Shown: positions 6,206 to 49,935 of the stretch, piece by piece | How the letters are laid out: the number at the start of each line of letters is the position of its first letter | How positions within the stretch are numbered: the first letter of the stretch is position 1 | Origin: an uncultured bacterium | GTDB lineage: Bacteria > Chloroflexota > UBA5177 > JANWHV01 | Assembly: GCA_963827235.1 (NCBI GenBank) | Contig: CAWHAE010000012.1 | Location: 832,001 to 896,000 of the forward strand | DNA length: 64,000 bases | Reading direction: 5' to 3' | The notes under the pieces: model-generated | Databases searched by the model: none | What the model was told of the DNA's origin: nothing | What the model saw: the letters and a program-made list of their open reading frames with translations, nothing else | Translations under genes and position numbers: made by a program

Positions 6206-6415
6206 CGATCTCAGCGCGTCGCTTGGTCCGGCGCGAGCGCACCGCGAGCCGGCAACGCGCTGAGATCGGGCCCTTACCCGCACGGTGGCCCGGCGAACAG
6301 GGGCAGTCGACAACGCACGGGACCGGCCTGTTCGCCGGGCGCAGCGGTACGATTGGTCCCCAATCCTCAGCGCGACGGCGGTCGGCCGGGAGAGTTCTGC
6401 CCGCCGGAGCCGACC
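6206..6415. repeat. Three tandem inverted repeats (two perfect 14-bp stems)
   Basis: 6206-6219 pairs with 6255-6268; 6288-6301 pairs with 6327-6340; ggtcggc (~6380) pairs with gccgacc (6409-6415). Confidence 0.75.
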
Positions 6416-6426
6416 TCAGTCGCGAG

Positions 6427-6744
6427 TCAGGGCGAGCTTTCTTCCGAGCGCGCCGCGACCCGTTGGAACCCGTTTTTGGCCACGCCCAGCCCGTGCGCGA
6501 TGTCGTCACGCATGACGCGTGGCATGATCGCCAAGCGCGCAGAGTTGAAATGTACTTCCGCCACTTCATTCCAGTTGTCGGAGTACCAGAGCGGCGGAGA
6601 GGCTACGCCGCCAATTCGTTTCGCAAAAAGACGGCACAGCGCACCCGCCTTCAGGCCGTCGTAGCCGAGCGGAAGTTGCGTCCAATGCCGTTCCAGTGTA
6701 CCGAGAGGGAGGTATGCCACGGGACGCCGGCGCCGTGCTTCCAC
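6427..6744 (-). pseudogene. Creatininase-family amidohydrolase, N-terminal fragment
   Basis: PVAYLPLGTLERHWTQLPLGYDG matches the creatininase G-x-x-E-x-H-G-x-H-L-P-x-G-T-D motif with substitutions; only about 105 aa remain. Confidence 0.7.
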
Positions 6745-6756
6745 GGTCCCCTTGGG

Positions 6757-6915
6757 GCGTCAGACGCTCTGCTGACGCGTACCATTACCGGCAAGATGAA
6801 CGACGTCTTCACCTGCGGCTCACTCGGATCGCTCAAGGTCGAGGCAGGCGGCGCCATCACTGCCGGACCGCCGACCATCTTCACCAACAAGAACTTCGAC
6901 CTGTATACATTCTGA
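6757..6915 (+). pseudogene. C-terminal remnant of an RhaS/LsrB-like sugar ABC substrate-binding protein
   Basis: TITGKMNDVFTCGSLGSLKVEAGGAITAGPPTIFTNKNFDLYTF* resembles the RhaS C-terminus (ITGxxGxxFxAGxLG...GPPxxFxxxNIDxFxF); no N-terminal part is present. Confidence 0.65.
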
Positions 6916-7266
6916 CCGGCTAGCATCTGCAGGCTGTGCCCACGGGACGGCAGCAGTATCGGCAAGGCGCATCGTGAACCGGTGCGACCGCTGCGGATTG
7001 GGCAATCCTGACGTGGAGGGAGACGATCTGAGAGACGCGGCAAGTGCCGCGACCCATGGATTGTCTCCCATCCTTGTCCACCGGCCGTCAATCGGCCATG
7101 CTTGGTAGTGCAGCCGGAAGGCACCAAGGGCCGGGAAGTCCCGACACGTCAGACCGGGAGCCGCACGAAACCGCCACCACGGGAGAAAGGTCGGGTCCCG
7201 CCCGGCGCGAACGATATCGGAGCTACCGGAAGCACCACGATGGTGCGAGAAGGAGAACCGCGGAAC

Positions 7267-7485
7267 ATGGAAGGCTATGTCGACTATCAGCGGCAAGAGT
7301 TCTGTAAGGATCTACCATGCCCGGTACAGGTACCCCTGGACGCGGCGGCGCCGGATTCGCAGGAATATGCACGCGTCCGCGGCATCTGCCAGGATAACTC
7401 CATACACACGACGTACGAGTTCCACCATTGGCTGATTGGAATGGGCTCCCTGATCATCCGGCCCGCATCGTCGTCGCGTGAATAA
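7267..7485 (+). CDS. Small Cys/His-rich hypothetical protein (72 aa)
   Basis: AGGAG upstream of ATG 7267; FCKDLPCP...IC...HTTYEFHHWL; directly upstream of the aldolase/SDR gene. Confidence 0.65.
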   Translation: MEGYVDYQRQEFCKDLPCPVQVPLDAAAPDSQEYARVRGICQDNSIHTTYEFHHWLIGMGSLIIRPASSSRE

Positions 7486-20701: not shown

Positions 20702-22618
20702 ATGCCAGACAGCATAGTGGGAATCGTGCCGCCCCAGCGCGCCAGGGTCGACTATGTGGACTACGCGGTGCTTGGCGTGGCGGCATGGTCCCGCACCCTG
20801 CGCCAGGCCGGATTCACGCCGAACGTGCTTCGTTTGCACGCTTCCGCCGACCTGCCGAGGCTTTGGGACTGCCGGGCAGTTTTCAGCCTGGGCGCCGGCA
20901 TCTACCCCGAGTTGTCCGGCGCGCTCGTCGCCACCGCGATAGCCCAGTGGGTACGCCAGGGCGGCATCTGGGTGGAGATTGCCGGCCATTTCTTTCTCTT
21001 CGGCTGCACGGGATCCCGGGTCACCGTGCCGGGCCAACTCGCGGCAGACATGTTCGACCTCGGCGTCGACATGGTGCTCGGCATGGCGTCGTTGCGGACT
21101 ACGCCGGCGGGCAGGGCGATCCTGGGGGCGCTGGATCCACCGGCGACAGTTCTGGCTGCCAATCCCACGAGCAACTTTCGGCTCATGGTGTTTCCAACCA
21201 TCGATCCATGGCTCAGCCTGGTGGAAACAGACCGCGGCGACAGTCTCCTGAGCGTCAATCAGTGCGGCAAAGGGTACATCGTCCGCTGGGGCTCCGCGGC
21301 GCATCGATGCACGCGTCGATTTCTCGCGGTGGCGCTCGTCCGGATAGTGCGCTACCTGCTCGATGGTCAGTTCTGTGCTTCCGTGCCGGGCACTTTGCAG
21401 CTGGTCATCGATCCTCTGCTCATCGCGCGAGAGCGGTGTGTGGCGCTGCAAACCGCCGTCGTGAACACCTCGTCCGCCCCATACCCGGATTCCTGTCTCG
21501 ACGTCGTGATGCATTCGTCGAGCGAGAGCGCGGTGGGACATGCCACTGTCGGCACAATCGCCGCCCGATCCGCCCATGTACAGGTGCTGACGCTCGACAT
21601 GTGCCCGCGGGAGCCGGTGGATGTCGGCGCAGTACTTGCCGGACCGCAGATCACGCGCGGGCAGGCAGTTGCCGAGCTGCCTCGACGCCCCGGTATCTGC
21701 AGCGAGCATATCCCTCCACCGCGACGGCCTGCCGACTTCGCGCAGTTCTGGCGTCGCGCGCGCACGGAACTTGGGGGCGTGAAGCGTGACGAGGAGTGGT
21801 GCTGGCTGCCGGAAGCCAGTACGGCGCAGGTCGTCACCAGGCGTGTTCGCTTTCGTAGTCTTGGTGGCATCCACATCGGAGGATTCTTCTCGTATCCTGC
21901 GCAAGCTGCTTCGCCTGTCCCGGGCGTGCTGATGCTTCCGGGGTACAACGGCATGGACCAATTCCCGTCATGTAGCGCCGCCAGCGGGTTCGCGGTGCTT
22001 GGCATCGACGTACGTGGTGTGGGCATCAGCGCGGAGGACTTTCCGTTCGAGGGTGACGGTCTGCTCACGCGTGGACTGTTATCGCCTGAGCATCATGCAT
22101 ACCGTGGAGCGTTCATGGACTGTCTGCGTGCGCTGGACGTGCTCGTAGCCCAGCCGATGGTCGATCCCAACCGCCTGAGCGTCCAGGGAATCAGCCAGGG
22201 CGGCGGATTGGCTCTGGCCGTTGCGGCGCTCAATCGGCGGGTGTCGACGGTGGTTGCGGAGGTACCGTTCCTCTGTGACATCACACGTTCGGCTTCGGTG
22301 GTCGACAGCGAGCCCCTGGCCGAGTTGAATCGATGGTTCAGCGTCCATCCCGAGGACGGCGAGGCTGCCATCTCCACTCTCGCCTACTTTGACGCGGCGA
22401 ATTTTGTCGTCGATCTTCGCGCGGCCACGCTGCTGGTGTATTCACCAGATGACCAAATCTGCCCAGAATCGAGTATCGAGACCACGCGCGCGCGCATGCA
22501 GTGCCCACTTACGGTATGGCGACGACGCGGCGGGCATAGCTATCCGTTCTTGACCCACCACAGGCGTAGCGTTACCAGGTGGCTGCTCAAGAGTATGACC
22601 GAACAGCAGCGAGTGTAG
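20702..22618 (+). CDS. CE7 acetylxylan esterase / cephalosporin-C deacetylase with a long N-terminal extension
   Basis: RPADFAQFW, GISQGGG nucleophile elbow, TLAYFDAANF, DQICP and GGH. Confidence 0.85.
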   Translation: MPDSIVGIVPPQRARVDYVDYAVLGVAAWSRTLRQAGFTPNVLRLHASADLPRLWDCRAVFSLGAGIYPELSGALVATAIAQWVRQGGIWVEIAGHFFLFGCTGSRVTVPGQLAADMFDLGVDMVLGMASLRTTPAGRAILGALDPPATVLAANPTSNFRLMVFPTIDPWLSLVETDRGDSLLSVNQCGKGYIVRWGSAAHRCTRRFLAVALVRIVRYLLDGQFCASVPGTLQLVIDPLLIARERCVALQTAVVNTSSAPYPDSCLDVVMHSSSESAVGHATVGTIAARSAHVQVLTLDMCPREPVDVGAVLAGPQITRGQAVAELPRRPGICSEHIPPPRRPADFAQFWRRARTELGGVKRDEEWCWLPEASTAQVVTRRVRFRSLGGIHIGGFFSYPAQAASPVPGVLMLPGYNGMDQFPSCSAASGFAVLGIDVRGVGISAEDFPFEGDGLLTRGLLSPEHHAYRGAFMDCLRALDVLVAQPMVDPNRLSVQGISQGGGLALAVAALNRRVSTVVAEVPFLCDITRSASVVDSEPLAELNRWFSVHPEDGEAAISTLAYFDAANFVVDLRAATLLVYSPDDQICPESSIETTRARMQCPLTVWRRRGGHSYPFLTHHRRSVTRWLLKSMTEQQRV

Positions 22619-22735
22619 CGGCTGGGCTCCGCGAGACAGCTCGGCACCAGTGCTAGGTCTCCCGGCTGAGTCGGCACAGCGCCGAGGTTTGCGTACGCAC
22701 ATCCCTCGCGGAAGGGGTCGAGTCTGGCATTCCGG

Positions 22736-22790
22736 CTTCACAGAATCTTTACGCAGCCTTCAATCTAGCTTCACAATCCGTAGGCATATT
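22736..22790 (+). promoter_or_regulatory. Four direct repeats at 11-bp period (OmpR/PhoB-type box) with a candidate -10
   Basis: CTTCACA 22736, CTTTACG 22747, CTTCAAT 22758 and CTTCACA 22769; CATATT at 22785-22790. Confidence 0.65.
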
Positions 22791-23001
22791 CAAGCCAGAC
22801 ACAGGATCCGGCGGCGCTTGCGACCGCAAGGAGCTGTGGCGAGCCGGGAGGCTCAGCTCTGCAAGACAGGCTTCCTCCTTGCTACGGCGGTGTGCGACGG
22901 CTACACTTCACCCATCGTCTGCCCACGAATGGGGCTCGGGGGCAGGCGATCGAAAGCGTGGCTGCGCACACCGCCAACGATTTTCACCGGGAGAATAGCA
23001 C

Positions 23002-23490
23002 GTGCTTGAACGCGCGTTGGCACTCGGCCCCATCCGCAAGGCAGGCCTGCTGAGCTTCGCCGCGGCTTCCATCATGATCGGCCTGGCAGGATGCGGCGGC
23101 AGCTCGAGCACGGCCACGCAGGTCCAGGCAACGCCCACGGCGACTACCGGTGCCGTGGCCCTCGCGGCGTGCGCACCTGCATCGACGGACGGCCGCGGCG
23201 GACCATATCCTGCCGCCGAGTCGAGCGACTGCACCGGCCGGAAGACGGTCGAGATCGACGTCGTGGACGATCCGAAAACGGTCGGCGGCTTCGCGCCCAG
23301 CAACGTCACGATAACGAGAGGCACCGTGGTCGCCTTCGTCTGGAAGTCCTCGGGCCACAACCTCAGCCCGTTCCACACGGACATCGAGGACACGGGCTAC
23401 GTGTTTCGCAAGACCTTCGACCAGGCCGGTAGTTTCGACTTCAGCTGCCAGGTACATCCCGGCCAGAATGGTGTGATATTCGTCCGGTAG
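23002..23490 (+). CDS. Cupredoxin (plastocyanin/azurin-like) lipoprotein
   Basis: Lipobox LAGC, FAPSNVTITRGTVV, GHN and CQVHPGQNGVI copper loop; GGGAG RBS. Confidence 0.88.
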   Translation: MLERALALGPIRKAGLLSFAAASIMIGLAGCGGSSSTATQVQATPTATTGAVALAACAPASTDGRGGPYPAAESSDCTGRKTVEIDVVDDPKTVGGFAPSNVTITRGTVVAFVWKSSGHNLSPFHTDIEDTGYVFRKTFDQAGSFDFSCQVHPGQNGVIFVR

Positions 23491-23682
23491 CGGCGAGTGG
23501 TGGAGTATTGTATGCTAACACCACAGAGAATGGTCTGCTGGCGCCCTGACTCGACGTGAGGCCCGTGTGCTATGCTCGCTCACGAATACGCTGCGAAGAG
23601 TGACGGTGTCCTTGGCATTGCCGGCATTGCAGGCGAATGAGTAGGTTAGCGTGCTCGGCGATGTAGGAGGTGATCCAGGATT

Positions 23683-25110
23683 ATGACTCAGACTTGCGCC
23701 CGCTGTGGCCTCTTCCATCCGCAGAATGTGCCCTGCGTCTCGCAGGCACTGGCACTCGTCGAACCGCAGGATGAGCTGGCCGTCGACTCATTCCTGGCCG
23801 GCCGCTATCGTATCCTGCGCACCTTGCATCACGGCGGAATGAGCGTCGTCTATCTGGCGGAAGATACCCTGCTCGGCAACCGCCACGTGGCGGTCAAGGA
23901 GCTGCGTGTACCTCCCTCGTCCGGCGCCGAGGAGCGGCAAGAGGCCGAGGCATGGTTTGCCCGTGAGGCGTACATCCTCAGCATCCTGAATCATCCTCTG
24001 GTGCCCGAGTTCTACAGCTCGTTCCCTGAAGGAGGCACCAGCTACATCGTTCAGGAGTACGCCGATGGCGATAACCTGAACGACGTCGTGCGGTCGCACG
24101 GGCCCTTCTCCGAAGACCTCGTTCTCGACTGGGCCATCTCGCTCTGCGGTCTGTTGAGTCATCTGCACGGCCTCGACGATCCCGTGCTGTTCCGCGATCT
24201 GAAGCCGGCGAACATCGTGCTGCGCAATGCAACGTCGACCAATCCTGATCGCATGTGCCCGCTCAAAGTGGTGGATTTCGGCATCGCCCGGCATTACCAG
24301 CCGAAGACCGTGGGAACGGTGATCGGTACACCCGGCTATGCGCCGCCGGAACAGTATCAGGGCCTGGCGACACCTCAAAGCGACATCTACGCGCTCGGTG
24401 CGACGCTGCATAGGCTGCTCACCGGCTACGATCCCGAGCACGGCACCCCGTTCTGCTATCCCGCTATCCGCGCGCTCAACCCCCTGGTCACCAGCGAGCT
24501 CGCCGCGATCGTCGAGAAAGCGATTCGACTGGATCCGGCGCAGCGCTATGCCACGGCCGACGAGCTCGCCGACGCTCTGCTCGACCTCGCCTGGGAGCGC
24601 GGACAGTCGGGCATGACGGGCGTGGGCGCCCAAAGCGGTCACTGGTATCACGGCCCGTCGACACGATCGCAGCAGGCCTTCCGCTGGACCGCCCTCGTCG
24701 TCTGCCTGATGATGGTAGCGCCGGGGGTATTCTCGGTGCTGGCCGGCATGAGCGTAAGCTCGTCGAGCACGGTGCCGAGCTTTACTGACTATGCCTGCCC
24801 GCCTGCCTCGTCGGATGGCGCCGGTGGCCCATATCCCGCGCAATATCCGTCCCTATGCCTCGAGCAGTCGCAGGTCGTGATCCAGGTCGTGCAGGACGCC
24901 ACGCAGGTAGTGGGCTTTGCGCCGAGCAATGTGACCGTAAGCCGGGGCACCAGAGTGATGGTGGATCCCAACGACCTTGGCTGTACCGTGCGCTGGCTGC
25001 AGACAATGGGTGCCCAGGCGGCGGTATCTGGGCGGCTCACGCAGACGGGAGACTACCGATTTGCCTGCCAGCAGTTCCCGAACGTCATCGGGGTGGTGCA
25101 CGTCGAGTAG
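23683..25110 (+). CDS. Hanks-type membrane Ser/Thr kinase with a C-terminal cupredoxin-like ectodomain
   Basis: GGMSVVY, VAVKE, FRDLKPAN, DFG and GTPGYAPPE; one TM (WTALVVCLMMVAPGVFSVLAGM); C-terminus aligns to the upstream cupredoxin; AGGAGG RBS. Confidence 0.92.
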   Translation: MTQTCARCGLFHPQNVPCVSQALALVEPQDELAVDSFLAGRYRILRTLHHGGMSVVYLAEDTLLGNRHVAVKELRVPPSSGAEERQEAEAWFAREAYILSILNHPLVPEFYSSFPEGGTSYIVQEYADGDNLNDVVRSHGPFSEDLVLDWAISLCGLLSHLHGLDDPVLFRDLKPANIVLRNATSTNPDRMCPLKVVDFGIARHYQPKTVGTVIGTPGYAPPEQYQGLATPQSDIYALGATLHRLLTGYDPEHGTPFCYPAIRALNPLVTSELAAIVEKAIRLDPAQRYATADELADALLDLAWERGQSGMTGVGAQSGHWYHGPSTRSQQAFRWTALVVCLMMVAPGVFSVLAGMSVSSSSTVPSFTDYACPPASSDGAGGPYPAQYPSLCLEQSQVVIQVVQDATQVVGFAPSNVTVSRGTRVMVDPNDLGCTVRWLQTMGAQAAVSGRLTQTGDYRFACQQFPNVIGVVHVE

Positions 25111-25131
25111 GAGCCGGCATGGCAGATCAGC

Positions 25132-26445
25132 TTGCAGGGCATCAGGCTGCCCTGGAATGATGGCGGTCGCGTGACCGAGGCGAAACGAGACGGCGTTGCC
25201 TCGCCACAGGCACCGCCGGTTGATGCTCTGCTTTCCAAGAGCGCCATCGTCGTCCCTACGTACTGGGGTCGTTCCCACGGCTTCCGGCGGCCCGGAGACA
25301 GCACCGAAGACCACCCCACGCCGGCCAACGAGCAGGGCACGATGGCCAGGCTGCTGGCCAGCCTGCAGCGGCTCGCCGAGAAGCCGAGTGTAGTGCTTGT
25401 CCTGATCTCCAGCTCGGCGCCGGACGTGGCTACCAGCGCCGCGTGGCGTGTCGACACCGTTCGCGACATGTATCCCGATCTGCCCATCGCCCTCTGGCTG
25501 CCTACGCACGTGCAGATTCTGCACGGACGGCTTCGCTCGCTGGGACACGACGATTGGACACTGTGGTTCGATTCCCGCGGCTATCCGCTGATCAGGAACA
25601 TGCAGCTCCTGGTGCCCTACGTGCTCGGCATGGAGCTGGTAGTGGCACTCGACGACGACGAGACCGTCGAAGAGCCCCATTTCATGCGACGCGCCGCCGA
25701 GGCGATCGTGCGCGGCGACGCGGCCGGTAACCGCGTGTTCGGTGCAGGCGGCCACTACCTCGACGAGGAAGGCCGGCGCACGCACGAAGTCGCGGAGAGC
25801 GAGAAGCGCCAATCGAACCCCTTCGAGAAGAAGACCTACCTCATGAACGGCATCCTGGAGCGCATTGACTCCATGCCCGGCGAGGTCGTGCCCAGCGCCT
25901 TCGCTCTCGGCGGCAACATGAGCTTCAGCCGCGAGCTGATGGCGAGGGTCGGCTTCGATCCCGCCATCGCTCGAGGCGAGGATATCGACTATGTGCTGAA
26001 CGCGGCGCTCGCCGGCATCCCGTATCATTTCGACAAGGAGCGCCCTATCCGCCACCTGCCTCCGGAAGGGCGCTCGTATAGGGACTTCGACTACGTGAAG
26101 CTGCAGCAGGACGTGCGCCGCTTCATCTACGAGCGCGAGAAGCTCCGAGCCGCCGGCAACATGGGTAACCCGGCCCTCGTTCGCCCCGAGGATCTCGACC
26201 CGTATCCGGGTGCGTTCCTGCGCGACGATCTGGAGGCCCAAGCAGTTGAGTCCCTTACCTTGCACCGGCCGAAGGTCTACGACACGAGCATTCCGGAGGC
26301 CGGCGTGTTCGTGCACAACGCGCTGCAGTTCGCGCGGACTGCCGCCGCGAGCTACCTCGGCTTCGCGCGCGACTGGCCCCAGGCGATGGCTCAGATGGCG
26401 GACGACCGCGTTTTGAGGCACATCATGCGCGGCATCCTTCCGTGA
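25132..26445 (+). CDS. GT-A fold (GT2-like) glycosyltransferase / conserved hypothetical protein
   Basis: IVVPTYW, IRN, VALDDDE (DxD), GGNM and RGEDIDY. The start may be GTG 25171. Confidence 0.7.
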   Translation: MQGIRLPWNDGGRVTEAKRDGVASPQAPPVDALLSKSAIVVPTYWGRSHGFRRPGDSTEDHPTPANEQGTMARLLASLQRLAEKPSVVLVLISSSAPDVATSAAWRVDTVRDMYPDLPIALWLPTHVQILHGRLRSLGHDDWTLWFDSRGYPLIRNMQLLVPYVLGMELVVALDDDETVEEPHFMRRAAEAIVRGDAAGNRVFGAGGHYLDEEGRRTHEVAESEKRQSNPFEKKTYLMNGILERIDSMPGEVVPSAFALGGNMSFSRELMARVGFDPAIARGEDIDYVLNAALAGIPYHFDKERPIRHLPPEGRSYRDFDYVKLQQDVRRFIYEREKLRAAGNMGNPALVRPEDLDPYPGAFLRDDLEAQAVESLTLHRPKVYDTSIPEAGVFVHNALQFARTAAASYLGFARDWPQAMAQMADDRVLRHIMRGILP

Positions 26446-46218: not shown

Positions 46219-47082
46219 CTATGACGGTTCGGCGAAGCGAGCCAGCTCGATCTGCTCGAGGCGGGCCATCATGTGGATGAAGAGCCACACCAGGGCAATG
46301 CCGAGCACCCCGTCGCCGCCATCCATCATGATGTTGCCGGCCAGGACCTGGTCGTCCATCACCGACATGCCCCACAGGCGCGGCAGCTCCGTGTAGTAGC
46401 CGTAGACGGGCGACCCCGACAAGATGAGCACGAAGCCAATCACCGAGTCGGGACCCAGTGCCAGGAGGACGAACAGGAACCGCCAGGCGTGGCTCAACCG
46501 CGCCCTGCCCGGATAGGGCTGCAGGATCACCCACCAGAACGGCAGAGCGGCGGCAAAGAAGCAGACGTGCTCGAGAACATGGATATCCTCGTTCTGCAGC
46601 GCCGCGTCGAAGAGGTAAGGCACGTGCCAGGCGAGCATGGCTCCGGCGAAGATCGGCCAGGCGAAGAAGGGCGAGGTCAGCACGTCGGTCAGCCGCCTGA
46701 ACCAATGCACCCGGGCGTGCCGCGCGGCAACCCAGCGAACCAGACCATGCGGCGCGCCCACCACGAGCACGGGAATGGGTTTTCCCATGAGCAGGAGCGG
46801 CGGAGCCACCATTAGCAGGAGGAAGTGCTGCACCATGTGCACGGAAAGCAGGTCATCGCTCAAGCTGTCTATCGGCGACAGCAGGGCAGCGACAACGGCC
46901 AGCAGGCCCAGGAAGAAGTACAGCTCATGCCAGGGAGAGACGGTTCGCCGCAGCCGGCCGCGCCGGTTGAGCGTCAGCAGGCCCCGCAAATAGATGATCG
47001 CGGCCAGCACGATACCAGCGGCCACGCTCGGCGTGAAGGTCCACTCCTTGAGGACAGTCACCAGCGACGGATAGGTGCTCAT
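46219..47082 (-). CDS. ctaG: Cytochrome c oxidase assembly factor CtaG (caa3-type)
   Basis: SVHMVQHFLL..VAPPLL, WHVP.LFD, HVLEH and DQVLAG. Confidence 0.88.
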   Translation of the reverse strand: MSTYPSLVTVLKEWTFTPSVAAGIVLAAIIYLRGLLTLNRRGRLRRTVSPWHELYFFLGLLAVVAALLSPIDSLSDDLLSVHMVQHFLLLMVAPPLLLMGKPIPVLVVGAPHGLVRWVAARHARVHWFRRLTDVLTSPFFAWPIFAGAMLAWHVPYLFDAALQNEDIHVLEHVCFFAAALPFWWVILQPYPGRARLSHAWRFLFVLLALGPDSVIGFVLILSGSPVYGYYTELPRLWGMSVMDDQVLAGNIMMDGGDGVLGIALVWLFIHMMARLEQIELARFAEPS

Positions 47083-47295
47083 AGTTCAGAGTAACATAGC
47101 TGTCGTGCAGAGCCGGCGGTTCCCACGCCCAGCGCCGCGCTGCATCGATGCCGGTCCCAGTCAGTCATGTCGCTGTCACGAAACCATCATCTTCCCGTTG
47201 CGAAGCGATCATGCGGCAATCCCACAATGACTGATGGAGCCTGGCGAAGTAGACCGTGCCTGATGATGGGCAGGCGTTTCGCGCAAGGAGTGACG

Positions 47296-49935
47296 ATGGC
47301 CGACCTTTCGAAGCTATTCTCGATGCGCACACCGGGTCGCGTGCGGCCGCTCTGCGCACTGTTTCTTGCCATATTGGCAGCCTGCATGGCGGTGCAGGCG
47401 TGGAGCCTCGTACCGACCGAGGCGGCGCCCAGAGCCGATTCCGGTCTCCGGGGCAGCACGGCATACGGCGTATCGGCAGCGCAGCAAGCAGTCTCTTCGA
47501 CGGTTTCCGCGGCGGCAACCCTCACCCTCAGTCCCTCCAGCGGAGCGCCGGGCACGCTCGTCCTCGCCCAGGCGACGGGCTTCACCGGCAACGAGACTGT
47601 CGACGTCTTCTACGACAACACACCGCTCACCACCACAACGGCCGCCAACGGTGCCGTGAGCTTCCAGTTCGTGATCCCAACAGCCAGCACGGTCGGCGCG
47701 AACACCGTCTCGCTGCTCGGCTACTCGAGCAACTACTCGACCAACGCGACGTTTACGGTAACCTCGTCGTCCGCCAGCGGCCTCATGCTCTCGCCCTCGC
47801 TCGGGCCGACCGGATCGACGGTGACCGCCAGCGGGTACATTGCCTCGGCGCAGTACTTCAAGAGCTTCGCCTACGCGCCCATCTTGATCTCGATCGCCGG
47901 TACCCAGGTAGCCTCCACCACCACGGATGCTTCGGGCCACTACTCGGTGACCTTCACCGTACCTACCGGACTAACCGGTGCGCAGACGGTCACGGCCTAC
48001 GGCAGCACGTCCGGCTTCACCGCCTCCGCGACCTTCACGGTCGGCACGACGCAGCTCTCGCTCAGCAGCAGCTCGGGTGTACCGGGCACCGTCGTGACAG
48101 CAAGCGGCAGCGGCTTCCTGGCCGGCGAGACGGTGAATCTCAACTGGTCGAATGGCGCTTCCGCCCCGACAGTCACGGCCGACAATAGCGGCGGCTTCAG
48201 CGAGAGCATCACTGTGCCCACCGGCGTGAGCACCTCGCAGGCGACGCTCACGGCGAGCGGCGCTTCCAGCCTGCGGACCGCAACCGCGTCGCTGACCGTG
48301 ATCAGCGCCAAGCTCTCGGCCAGCGTCGTCTTACCGGCAGGAGACAAGATCGCGCTCTCCGGCACCGGTTTCGCGCCCGGGGAGGCGATTACGTTGACCA
48401 ATACGGCCGGCGGCACGTTCAGCGCAACTGCGGACGCTCAGGGCAATCTGAGTCTCACGGTCGGCATTCCCGCGACCTTCGCGGGCGGCGTCATCACCTT
48501 CACTGCCCAAGGCGCGACCAGCCAGGCCGACGTCACGGCGACCGTGACCGTGAGCATGGCAGAGGCCAGCCCGAGCACCACCGCCGCGGCCACCGCGACC
48601 GCGGCCACCACTCCCGGCGCCTCGCCAAGCCCAACCGCTTCGGCCACCCCGTCGACGACCGTGGTGCCGTCCGGCAGCACGGGCAGCGCGACATGGTATT
48701 TCGCTGCCGGTCGCACGGACGGCAGCTATGGCGAGCAGATCGACATTCTCAACCCGAGCAGCGGCCAGATCCAGGGCACCATCACGGCCTACTTTGGCGC
48801 AGGCAAGAGCGCTTCGCAGACGTTCACTCTTGGCGCCCTGCGCCGGGGAACCTACGACGTCGGCGCCATCGCCGGGCACCAGAGCAGCGTGGCCGTGGTC
48901 GTGGCAGCCAGCGAACCGATCGCCGCCGCGGCAACCGGTCTCAACGGCACCGTCGACCGGACGGCCCTGAACGGCGTGGCCGGCGGATCCACAAAATGGT
49001 ACTTCGCCGAGGGCTACACGGGACTGACGTTCAAGGAAACGCTGAGCCTGTTCAATCCGGGCGCTACCGCCGCGGGGGTTCAGCTCCTGTGGCCGGTGCA
49101 AGGGAGCAAGGCCGTCCGACTGCAGGTGACCGTGCCCGCACACTCGGTGCTGAGCGTGCCGGTGAACCAGTACGTGAAGAGCGCTTCGCATGCCACGATC
49201 GTGACCTCGAATCAGAAGGTAATCGCGGCCCGCACGCTCATCTTTGGCGCCGCCGGCCAGAGCGCAACCGTGACTCATGGCGCGACGAGTGCCGGCACGA
49301 CGCTCTACTTTGCCGAAGGATCGACCGCTAACGGCTTCCAGGAATTCGTGAGCTTACTCAATCCGCAGAGCGCGAGCACGGCACACGTGACGGTCACCTT
49401 CTACGGCGGAGCCGGGACAATCCTGGGCTCGCGCACGGTGACCATTGCTCCGCTCGGCCGAGCCAGCATCGCCGTCAACTCCCTCACACACGCGTCATCC
49501 GTGGCTGCTACAGTGCGGAGCGACGTGCCGGTACTCGCCGAGCGATCCATGTACATGGGAAGCCCGAATTCGGACAGCGGCGCCGGCACCGATGTGTTCG
49601 CGGCCGCGCAGGCAGCCACCGGCTGGGCCTTCGCCGCCGGCGATACCGGCTCCGGCCAGAAAGAGTTCATCACCCTGCTCAACCCGGGCAGCACGGCCAC
49701 CACCGTGGTCGCGACCTGGTACGAAAGCAGCGGGCAGCTCGTGCAGCAGTCGTTCAGCCTGAATGGACATGCCCGTCTGACGGTAGACGTCGTGCTCTCC
49801 GCCTTGACGTTGCCGGCCGGCGTGCACGGCCTCGTGGTGCAATCGACGGACGGCGCGCAGTTCGTGGCCGAGGAGGCACTCTACAGCGGCACGCTGCAGC
49901 AGGGCGCGGCGCTGGTGGGTGAGCCCGTGAGCTGA
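47296..49935 (+). CDS. Secreted Ser/Thr-rich surface protein with Ig-like repeats and WYFAEG (DUF5719-like) repeats
   Basis: AGGAG upstream of ATG 47296; signal-like segment; about 4 LSPSSG.PGT.V...GF repeats; T/P/S linker; WYFAAG, WYFAEG, LYFAEG and WAFAAG repeats. Confidence 0.8.
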   Translation: MADLSKLFSMRTPGRVRPLCALFLAILAACMAVQAWSLVPTEAAPRADSGLRGSTAYGVSAAQQAVSSTVSAAATLTLSPSSGAPGTLVLAQATGFTGNETVDVFYDNTPLTTTTAANGAVSFQFVIPTASTVGANTVSLLGYSSNYSTNATFTVTSSSASGLMLSPSLGPTGSTVTASGYIASAQYFKSFAYAPILISIAGTQVASTTTDASGHYSVTFTVPTGLTGAQTVTAYGSTSGFTASATFTVGTTQLSLSSSSGVPGTVVTASGSGFLAGETVNLNWSNGASAPTVTADNSGGFSESITVPTGVSTSQATLTASGASSLRTATASLTVISAKLSASVVLPAGDKIALSGTGFAPGEAITLTNTAGGTFSATADAQGNLSLTVGIPATFAGGVITFTAQGATSQADVTATVTVSMAEASPSTTAAATATAATTPGASPSPTASATPSTTVVPSGSTGSATWYFAAGRTDGSYGEQIDILNPSSGQIQGTITAYFGAGKSASQTFTLGALRRGTYDVGAIAGHQSSVAVVVAASEPIAAAATGLNGTVDRTALNGVAGGSTKWYFAEGYTGLTFKETLSLFNPGATAAGVQLLWPVQGSKAVRLQVTVPAHSVLSVPVNQYVKSASHATIVTSNQKVIAARTLIFGAAGQSATVTHGATSAGTTLYFAEGSTANGFQEFVSLLNPQSASTAHVTVTFYGGAGTILGSRTVTIAPLGRASIAVNSLTHASSVAATVRSDVPVLAERSMYMGSPNSDSGAGTDVFAAAQAATGWAFAAGDTGSGQKEFITLLNPGSTATTVVATWYESSGQLVQQSFSLNGHARLTVDVVLSALTLPAGVHGLVVQSTDGAQFVAEEALYSGTLQQGAALVGEPVS

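Follow-up and report, generated by a model that had tools for sequence, protein, structure and literature searches.

A receptor Ser/Thr kinase of uncultured Chloroflexota with a copper-less cupredoxin ectodomain, encoded beside its blue-copper paralogue

What might a bacterial receptor kinase sense through an ectodomain that resembles a blue-copper protein but has lost most of its copper ligands? The question is raised by two adjacent genes at positions 23,002 to 25,110 of the window, the 64,000-nucleotide stretch analysed here, which is part of contig C12 of an uncultured Chloroflexota genome (8.0 Mb in 21 contigs). The upstream gene encodes a lipoprotein with a cupredoxin domain, and the downstream gene encodes a Hanks-type Ser/Thr kinase whose C-terminal ectodomain is related to that domain. 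We regard this anatomy, a blue-copper lipoprotein beside a pseudo-cupredoxin receptor kinase, as almost certain. No description of a receptor Hanks kinase with a putative pseudo-cupredoxin sensor derived from a paralogue turned up in the full-text literature searched. Below, G000 denotes the genome itself and G001-G004 the other four genomes of its genus, and L and P numbers denote loci and proteins.

The ectodomain and its former copper site

The initial annotation had claimed that the lipoprotein domain and the part of the kinase beyond its transmembrane (TM) helix align almost without gaps. BLASTP recovered this alignment at the same coordinates: lipoprotein residues 56-162 and kinase residues 371-475 were identical at 46 of 107 positions (43%), with 2 gaps (E 1e-16). 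A count of 32 identities among the first 53 residues, made by hand in that annotation, proved exact, and the N-terminal Cys-x19-Cys arm that it noticed is present in both proteins (C57/C77 in the lipoprotein and C372/C392 in the kinase). The similarity is above chance because of the E value and because the pattern recurs in every orthologue found. Third codon positions have diverged while residues were kept, as had been proposed, the same codon being used at only 22 of the 46 identical residues; across 105 codons the proportions of synonymous (pS) and nonsynonymous (pN) differences were 0.63 and 0.43. The few shared codons and the pS value indicate that the duplication is old. Judged by sequence, the ectodomain and the neighbouring blue-copper domain are true paralogues. 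Between the two, conservation is highest along the arm, C-x-P-A-x-[ST]-D-G-x-G-G-P-Y-P-A, rather than at the copper site.

The lipoprotein passes the Pfam family PF00127 (Copper-bind) with 24.1 bits (cut-off 21.2, E 4.9e-5); it also matches the halocyanin domain TIGR03102 at E 7.2e-9, which is under the cut-off of that model. A profile alignment against the PDB placed H119, C149, H152 and Q155 on the His (in GHN), Cys, His and Met ligands of pseudoazurin 2ux6, and likewise on those of plastocyanins. The 2ux6 protein is a pseudoazurin with an amicyanin loop, CTPHPFM, the lipoprotein counterpart of which is CQVHPGQ. The lipoprotein is thus predicted to carry an amicyanin-like type-1 copper site with the ligand set His/Cys/His/Gln. 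The same H/C/H/Q set was found in all 17 of the distinct free (not kinase-linked) copies of the family in which the four columns were readable, and the first His is present in two truncated free copies. Lipoboxes follow the consensus [LVI][ASTVI][GAS]C; in the lipoprotein, L28-A-G-C31 comes after a hydrophobic stretch, as read from the sequence, and the LAGC lipobox is retained in the orthologues of G001, G002, G004, L017, L018-L022 and L025. The product is, by these signals, a bacterial lipoprotein with a predicted lipid anchor. An AlphaFold2 model of its copper domain from 8 sequences had a mean predicted local distance difference test score (pLDDT) of 66.4, too weak for use.

In the kinase, the four ligand columns read C434/C462/F465/V468. 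This change from H/C/H/Q to C/C/F/V had been put forward in the initial annotation and was reproduced in a 16-sequence alignment (A1) and in the PDB profile. Three of the four copper ligands are lost and the ligand Cys alone is retained; by its residues, the ectodomain cannot form a type-1 copper site. The replacement of the first His by Cys involves two base changes (CAC to TGT). The two cysteines are spaced 28 residues apart, and the loop reads CQQFPNV.

No Pfam family matched the ectodomain at E ≤ 1 (no PASTA, propeller, Copper-bind or Cupredoxin_1), and its link to cupredoxins runs through its paralogue, which itself passes PF00127. The predicted structure points the same way. AlphaFold2 with alignment A1 gave a model of the ectodomain with pLDDT 86.5 and a predicted template modelling score (pTM) of 0.81. 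Foldseek against the PDB returned 18 matches at E ≤ 1e-3, all 18 of them cupredoxin-fold chains, led by pseudoazurins (query TM-score, TMq, 0.60); CupA (4f2e) ranked sixth (E 4.9e-4, TMq 0.47) and the metal-binding domain of CopA (4f2f) thirteenth. VIA-align gave Z 9.2 with 9cck_A (root-mean-square deviation 2.6 Å over 86 aligned residues) and Z 9.0 with plastocyanin 1bxu, and cupredoxin domains accounted for 50 of the 50 matches listed. The apo-plastocyanin 2pcy was also among the fold matches; according to its entry title, it is the polypeptide that makes the geometry of the site. We conclude from the model that the ectodomain has a cupredoxin fold. A heterodimer prediction from the ectodomain and lipoprotein alignments scored 0.00, which is evidence neither way.

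The cytoplasmic part of the protein matches PF00069 over residues 42-253 with 118.1 bits (cut-off 31.7, E 6.1e-34). Residues 36-301 align with NF033483 (E 1.6e-50) at 172.7 bits against a cut-off of 450, and the protein is therefore not a PASTA kinase; no PASTA repeat was matched by Pfam at E ≤ 1. The catalytic motifs comprise K72 (in VAVK), E95, D172 and N177 in FRDLKPAN (where HRD reads FRD), D198-F-G and an APE-type motif, GTPGYAPPE, at residues 215-223, and the catalytic residues are retained in orthologues. The kinase is motif-complete and is predicted to be an active Hanks-type enzyme. Just before the kinase domain lies a CxxCGLFHPxxxPC motif (residues 5-18) that is invariant in five of five full-length cupredoxin kinases; this CCHC-type motif is retained in the kinases of G001, G002, P0005 and L023, and a variant, CxxCGL[F/C]HP..C, occurs in kinase paralogues whose ectodomains differ. 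The motif has the look of a CCHC zinc knuckle or a half-rubredoxin and brings to mind the rubredoxin module of PknG from mycobacteria. Paralogues of the cytoplasmic kinase part, at 55-61% identity, are present in G001-G004 with unrelated C-termini. When the whole kinase was searched in the ESM Atlas, only generic kinase clusters were returned, none with a cupredoxin family.

The ectodomain is placed outside the membrane because it lies C-terminal to the single TM helix, its paralogue is a lipobox lipoprotein and both share the Cys-x19-Cys arm. Arg residues flank the helix on its N-terminal, cytoplasmic side. The TM segment and its flank (QAFRWTALVVCLMMVAPG) are nearly invariant among orthologues, and between G000 and G001 the nonsynonymous substitution rate (dN) is 0 across residues 331-357. 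Such conservation is unusually high for a simple anchor and suggests helix-helix contacts.

Distribution, selection and origin of the fusion

The family is very rare and belongs to a small clade of uncultured Chloroflexota. The genome holds only the two copies described here. Among 61 genomes (G000 and 60 relatives), six had a match at E ≤ 1e-3, namely G000, the other four members of the genus and, with a weak match (L007, G028:C2:335189-335434, E 3.5e-4), G028, a genome of another taxonomic family and the only one outside the genus. A HMMER search of 1.84 billion representative proteins yielded 13 at E ≤ 1e-3; a word-index protein search (261-832 aa) found three, including the query, and none beyond the HMMER set. 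One metagenome scan added ten loci. All named records with the family are Chloroflexota metagenome-assembled genomes. A search of the genome with PF13473 found three unrelated cupredoxin-like loci (L027-L029).

Two observations stand at the edge of the family. The L007 match has 36% identity over query residues 11-93 and lies within a 962-aa open frame. Three large proteins, P0007 (3669 aa), P0014 (1455 aa) and P0015 (905 aa), have 15, 5 and 7 stretches, respectively, that match the strand region GFAPSNVTV of the ectodomain, and they probably carry repeated cupredoxin-like or Ig-like modules.

The proposal in the initial annotation hung on orthologues keeping both the His-to-Cys change and the gene pairing. 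Cys occupies the first-His column, alongside the ligand Cys, in all nine complete kinase-linked copies. By comparison, the second-His column varies freely among these copies (F, M, Q, Y, Y, I, Y, N and L), and the axial column is Val in eight and Ile in one. Because both site cysteines are kept in nine of nine while identity among the ectodomains falls to 32%, the rewired site appears to have been selected rather than to have drifted. The arm Cys pair is kept in all copies except P0004, a 132-aa fragment without the second arm Cys. There are 14 invariant columns among eight kinase ectodomains, which include all fold-defining Gly, Pro and Phe residues and both site Cys, and reading frames are intact in the nine kinase-linked copies.

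A maximum-likelihood tree placed all eight A1 kinase ectodomains on one side of a branch with support 95/92 (L023, found later, is outside the tree). This shared position argues for one fusion event and points to a single origin of the kinase-cupredoxin fusion; K_P0013 and K_P0005 sit on long branches, and their placement is therefore unsure. Independent recent duplication or gene conversion in each genome was considered and ruled out by the clustering of the kinase ectodomains. Selection on the duplicated domain, which the initial annotation had suspected, is purifying: pN was below pS in every orthologue pair, with values of 0.25 and 0.75 for the ectodomains of G000 and G001.

The lipoprotein gene lies directly 5' of the kinase gene on the same strand in all four kinase loci with a visible upstream gene, so that the pairing is kept as well. 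These are the window, G001, G002 and L023, with spacers of 192, 201, 70 and 127 bp; the neighbours of the other five kinase sequences are out of view because these are fragments or lie on short contigs. A gene for a GT2-like protein follows the kinase gene in the window and has a homologue in the same place in G001. In six loci (G003, G004, L018, L019, L020 and L026), the lipoprotein gene is followed by a homologue of this gene with no kinase between them; L014, L018 and L019 are near-identical and therefore not independent. Since they are conserved neighbours in loci without a kinase, the lipoprotein gene and the GT2-like gene may be an older unit. The simplest history is that a member of the CxxCGL[F/C]HP kinase family acquired a copy of the cupredoxin domain of the neighbouring lipoprotein and that its gene stayed at the locus in a subclade; alternatively, the kinase may have been lost in other lineages.

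The whole locus occurs twice in G001 (L003/L012/L034 on C6 and L008/L010/L030 on C11). In the C6 copy, the lipoprotein shows a single-residue difference and the kinase is broken into two frames of 300 and 270 aa; this copy is either a pseudogenised duplicate or from a second strain in the bin (contamination 6%).

Possible roles of the cysteine pair

How could a domain of this kind inform the kinase? We tentatively prefer the reading that C434 and C462 act as a regulatory thiol/disulfide switch. The ectodomain would be a copper-less pseudo-cupredoxin serving as the sensor of the kinase, and the two cysteines at the former copper site would form a thiol/disulfide couple. The oxidation state of this couple would alter the conformation or the pairing of the ectodomain, and the change would pass through the conserved TM helix to trans-autophosphorylation of the kinase. 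The pool of extracytoplasmic electron carriers would be the likeliest oxidant, perhaps through the lipoprotein itself in its oxidised Cu(II) form; a Cu(II) cupredoxin is thermodynamically able to oxidise a dithiol. Our grade applies to the switch mechanism, the weakest inferred step, and what remains beyond the readings given here is left to ones that we do not list.

In a type-1 site, one copper atom is bound by both the first His and the Cys, whose side chains therefore point at one spot. Because of this shared copper and the two-Cys precedent of CupA, we infer that C434 and C462 are able to meet. Passages of the CupA papers (PMC5646241; PMC7558416; PMC3817396) describe C74 and C111 as sharing one Cu(I) and propose that they become oxidised while reducing Cu(II). 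This precedent, together with the title of the 2pcy entry, makes a reactive Cys pair feasible at a cupredoxin site.

Several observations weigh against a switch. A purely structural disulfide or a metal site would be expected to conserve its Cys pair just as well, and conservation cannot separate these cases; the arm Cys pair is equally conserved (8/9, P0004 being the exception). The site pair may be buried by bulky hydrophobic side chains in the column where the second His used to be, and burial would favour a structural role. Next to the two genes there is no thiol-disulfide oxidoreductase, phosphatase or obvious substrate gene. The ectodomain also changes about five times faster than the kinase domain: between G000 and G001, dN is 0.306 for the ectodomain, 0.121 for the lipoprotein domain, 0.061 for the kinase domain and 0 for the TM segment, with ratios to the synonymous rate (dS) that are rough because dS is saturated (>1). 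It is the fastest-changing folded part of the system, yet constrained. Fast evolution is common for sensor domains.

Somewhat doubtful, in our estimate, is a purely structural role in which a permanent C434-C462 staple replaces the metal and the domain senses by binding, with redox state and copper irrelevant. The domain might, for instance, dock the partner of the lipoprotein through the shared N-terminal arm, or dock the lipoprotein itself. The superior conservation of the arm over the copper site fits a common docking surface, the places of the lost ligands are filled by hydrophobic residues, and the domain is predicted to be extracytoplasmic. A new staple at ligand positions is not obviously needed, however, since apo-cupredoxins retain their fold with neither metal nor an additional disulfide, in keeping with the title of the 2pcy entry. 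Dimerisation induced by a ligand or partner is an activation route described for receptor Hanks kinases in parts of PMC6213207.

We consider it unlikely that the pair is a Cu(I) sensor, in which the dithiol would bind Cu(I) in a linear bis-thiolate site like S1 of CupA and occupancy would gate the kinase. The sensor could be loaded from, or compete with, the neighbouring copper lipoprotein, as in the relay of the initial annotation. In line with such a site, the 18 Foldseek matches include both CupA and the CopA domain, the 28-residue Cys spacing is within the range of His-Cys ligand spacings, and the neighbour is a copper protein whose pairing with the kinase is kept in four of four loci. Excerpts of the CupA literature assign its high-affinity Cu(I) site to C74 and C111 (PMC5646241), call it the bis-thiolate S1 site and report that CupA and the CopA domain, themselves paired cupredoxin folds, interact for Cu export (both PMC7558416), a parallel to the lipoprotein and the ectodomain. 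The match to CupA is weaker, however, than that to pseudoazurin (TMq 0.47 and 0.60), and the ectodomain has no Met-rich second site (C-x-M-x-M): its loop is CQQFPNV, and Met occupies the second-His column in only one of nine copies. CupA also works in the reducing cytoplasm, according to the portion of PMC7558416 consulted, whereas the ectodomain is predicted to lie outside, where a vicinal Cys pair tends to oxidise. Finally, the open reading frames (ORFs) scanned between positions 727 and 49935 include no cop (copA, copZ), cus, cso (csoR) or multicopper-oxidase gene, the sole copper-related one being a Caa3_CtaG assembly factor at 46219-47082, 21 kb off.

Distinctly unlikely, we estimate, is the full relay, in which the oxidised or copper-loaded lipoprotein would dock on its copper-less paralogue in the kinase and then oxidise C434/C462 or hand over copper, so that the state of the carrier pool sets cytoplasmic Ser/Thr phosphorylation. 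It is very improbable that the ectodomain is a decaying, functionless leftover of a local duplication kept as a membrane stalk: its dN, above those of the kinase and lipoprotein domains, and its three lost ligands would fit, but pN is well under pS in all pairs, the 14 invariant columns and nine intact frames speak for constraint, and the fold is predicted with confidence (pLDDT 86.5).

The locus and its place among known systems

Coordinates of the locus are collected in Table 1. The two ORFs described in the initial annotation are present in the ORF list as given there. The G+C content at third codon positions (GC3) is 0.82 for the lipoprotein gene and 0.78 for the kinase gene, similar to the genes around; with the intact frames, these values rule out a wrong frame or a pseudogene for the pair.

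Table 1. Window positions of the features of the lipoprotein and kinase genes
Feature	Position	Strand	Basis
Lipoprotein cupredoxin gene, 162 aa, GTG start	23002..23490, stop included	+	ORF; PF00127 match
Signal peptide to lipobox L-A-G-C, Cys31 codon 23092-23094	23002..23094	+	Sequence reading
Type-1 copper domain of lipoprotein	23167..23487	+	Alignment to solved cupredoxins
Lipoprotein arm Cys57, Cys77	23170-23172, 23230-23232	+	Sequence reading
Lipoprotein predicted ligands His119, Cys149, His152, Gln155; loop CQVHPGQ	23356-23358, 23446-23448, 23455-23457, 23464-23466	+	Alignments
Intergenic spacer, 192 bp	23491..23682	+
Receptor Ser/Thr kinase gene, 475 aa, ATG start, AGGAGG upstream	23683..25110, stop included	+
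N-terminal C5-x2-C8-G-L-F-H12-P-x3-P-C18 motif, candidate zinc knuckle	23695..23736	+	Sequence reading
Hanks-type kinase domain, ~residues 42-300	23806..24582	+	PF00069, NF033483
Single TM helix, ~W335-M356	24685..24750	+	Sequence reading, not a TM predictor
Copper-less cupredoxin ectodomain, 105 residues	24793..25107	+	BLASTP, AlphaFold2, Foldseek, VIA-align
Kinase ectodomain arm Cys372, Cys392	24796-24798, 24856-24858	+	Sequence reading
Kinase former ligand columns Cys434, Cys462, Phe465, Val468	24982-24984, 25066-25068, 25075-25077, 25084-25086	+
Context gene, 437-aa GT2-like protein	25132..26445	+	Synteny; ESM Atlas lead

A scan of positions 22500-25300 gave no sigma-70-like promoter and no intrinsic terminator, and Rfam found no family at threshold in 22500-23800, the only match being a chance-level snoRNA (E 0.41). 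The roughly 380 bp 5' of the lipoprotein gene (22619-23001) contain no convincing ORF and no Rfam match; a 119-aa ORF at 22650-23009 has GC3 0.60 and no family. The GT2-like protein has no Pfam match; its nearest ESM Atlas clusters carry Glyco_tranf_2_3 (score 0.99), which is a lead only, and it has a weak EpsD match (E 9e-4). Across the scanned ORFs, no thiol-redox, phosphatase or FHA genes were found near the pair. Three ORFs of high GC3, at 47167-49935 (922 aa), 6223-6915 (230 aa) and 7102-7485 (127 aa), have no Pfam family at E ≤ 1e-5.

Some members of the cupredoxin family are secreted without a lipobox, and in both of the loci examined (L016 and L024) they adjoin a FAD_binding_2 flavoprotein of about 610 aa. 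The units span 2332-4747 in L016 and 36-2459 in L024, with the flavoprotein 3' of the cupredoxin, and the flavoprotein of L011/L016 has an N-terminal twin-arginine-like signal. The two proteins are a candidate pair of dehydrogenase and blue-copper acceptor, for which amicyanin with its dehydrogenase is a parallel. With their intact type-1 ligand set and the flavoprotein neighbour, the free cupredoxins fit ordinary electron carriers, and the lipoprotein family as a whole looks like one of extracytoplasmic electron carriers of the usual kind.

Among small type-1 copper proteins, the lipoprotein profile matches amicyanin, pseudoazurin, plastocyanin and halocyanin chains at E 1e-9 to 1e-6, and its ligand loop, CxxHPx[M/Q], is of amicyanin length. 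It differs from them in its Gln axial ligand, its predicted lipid anchor and a Cys-stapled N-terminal arm of 25 residues. The ectodomain model superposes on the same proteins at Z 7.6-9.0 but is without three of the four ligands. Auracyanin of Chloroflexus, a membrane-tethered blue-copper electron carrier of the same phylum that is azurin-like with a Met axial ligand, is presumably the likeliest functional analogue of the lipoprotein; no auracyanin chain was among the 60 PDB profile matches listed. We know of no paralogous kinase for auracyanins.

CupA resembles the ectodomain in having a cupredoxin fold without a blue-copper site and a pair of Cys, which in CupA (C74 and C111) is the functional centre. 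A further, possible likeness, drawn from portions of PMC5646241, PMC7558416 and PMC3817396, is that in CupA and CopA two paralogous cupredoxin-fold domains on partner proteins cooperate at the membrane. Parts of PMC5646241 and PMC7558416 describe CupA as a Cu(I) chaperone at the cytoplasmic face, encoded in a cop operon and having a Met-rich site in addition to S1. The ectodomain, in contrast, is predicted to lie outside the membrane as part of a Ser/Thr kinase; it is without the Met-rich loop, and cop genes are absent from its neighbourhood. It fails to show two of the three features of CupA, and the likeness consists of a fold-level match and two Cys.

In its plan, a cytoplasmic kinase domain at the N-terminus followed by one TM helix and, outside the membrane, a C-terminal sensor, the kinase matches PknB/PrkC, which carry PASTA domains, and PknD, which carries a beta-propeller. 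Known sensor domains of receptor kinases are few, and sections of PMC6213207 cover these two. Neither these domains nor any other Pfam family was found on the ectodomain at E ≤ 1, which sets it apart from those kinases. The PknH type is another known kinase sensor domain, and to our knowledge the signals of most bacterial receptor Ser/Thr kinases are not known. In the ArcB and RegB histidine kinases, activity is set by oxidation of sensor Cys by components of the electron transport chain, a logic like that of the proposed switch. Unlike that switch, these are histidine kinases with Cys in cytoplasmic PAS or linker regions, a quinone oxidant and no cupredoxin.

The initial annotation knew of no system of this kind. 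For the architecture this stands: no cupredoxin-type sensor on a Ser/Thr kinase was found among the papers listed by full-text literature searches. It does not stand for a cupredoxin with a Cys-Cys Cu(I) site, which is known from pneumococcal CupA and the N-terminal domain of CopA.

Since only a small clade of uncultured Chloroflexota has the system, the general reach of the finding is modest unless independent fusions exist elsewhere; other phyla may hold independent kinase-cupredoxin fusions. Within this clade, the origin of a sensor can be read directly: an electron carrier was duplicated, its metal centre turned into a Cys pair, and the product was wired to a kinase. The relay, if true, would give the first cupredoxin-derived sensor domain and the first Hanks kinase that senses copper or respiratory redox state. 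Should the pair prove to be a switch or a Cu(I) site, the system would offer a simple, testable model for phosphorylation that reports respiratory redox state or copper outside the membrane, and a natural example of a blue-copper site turned into a thiol-based one.

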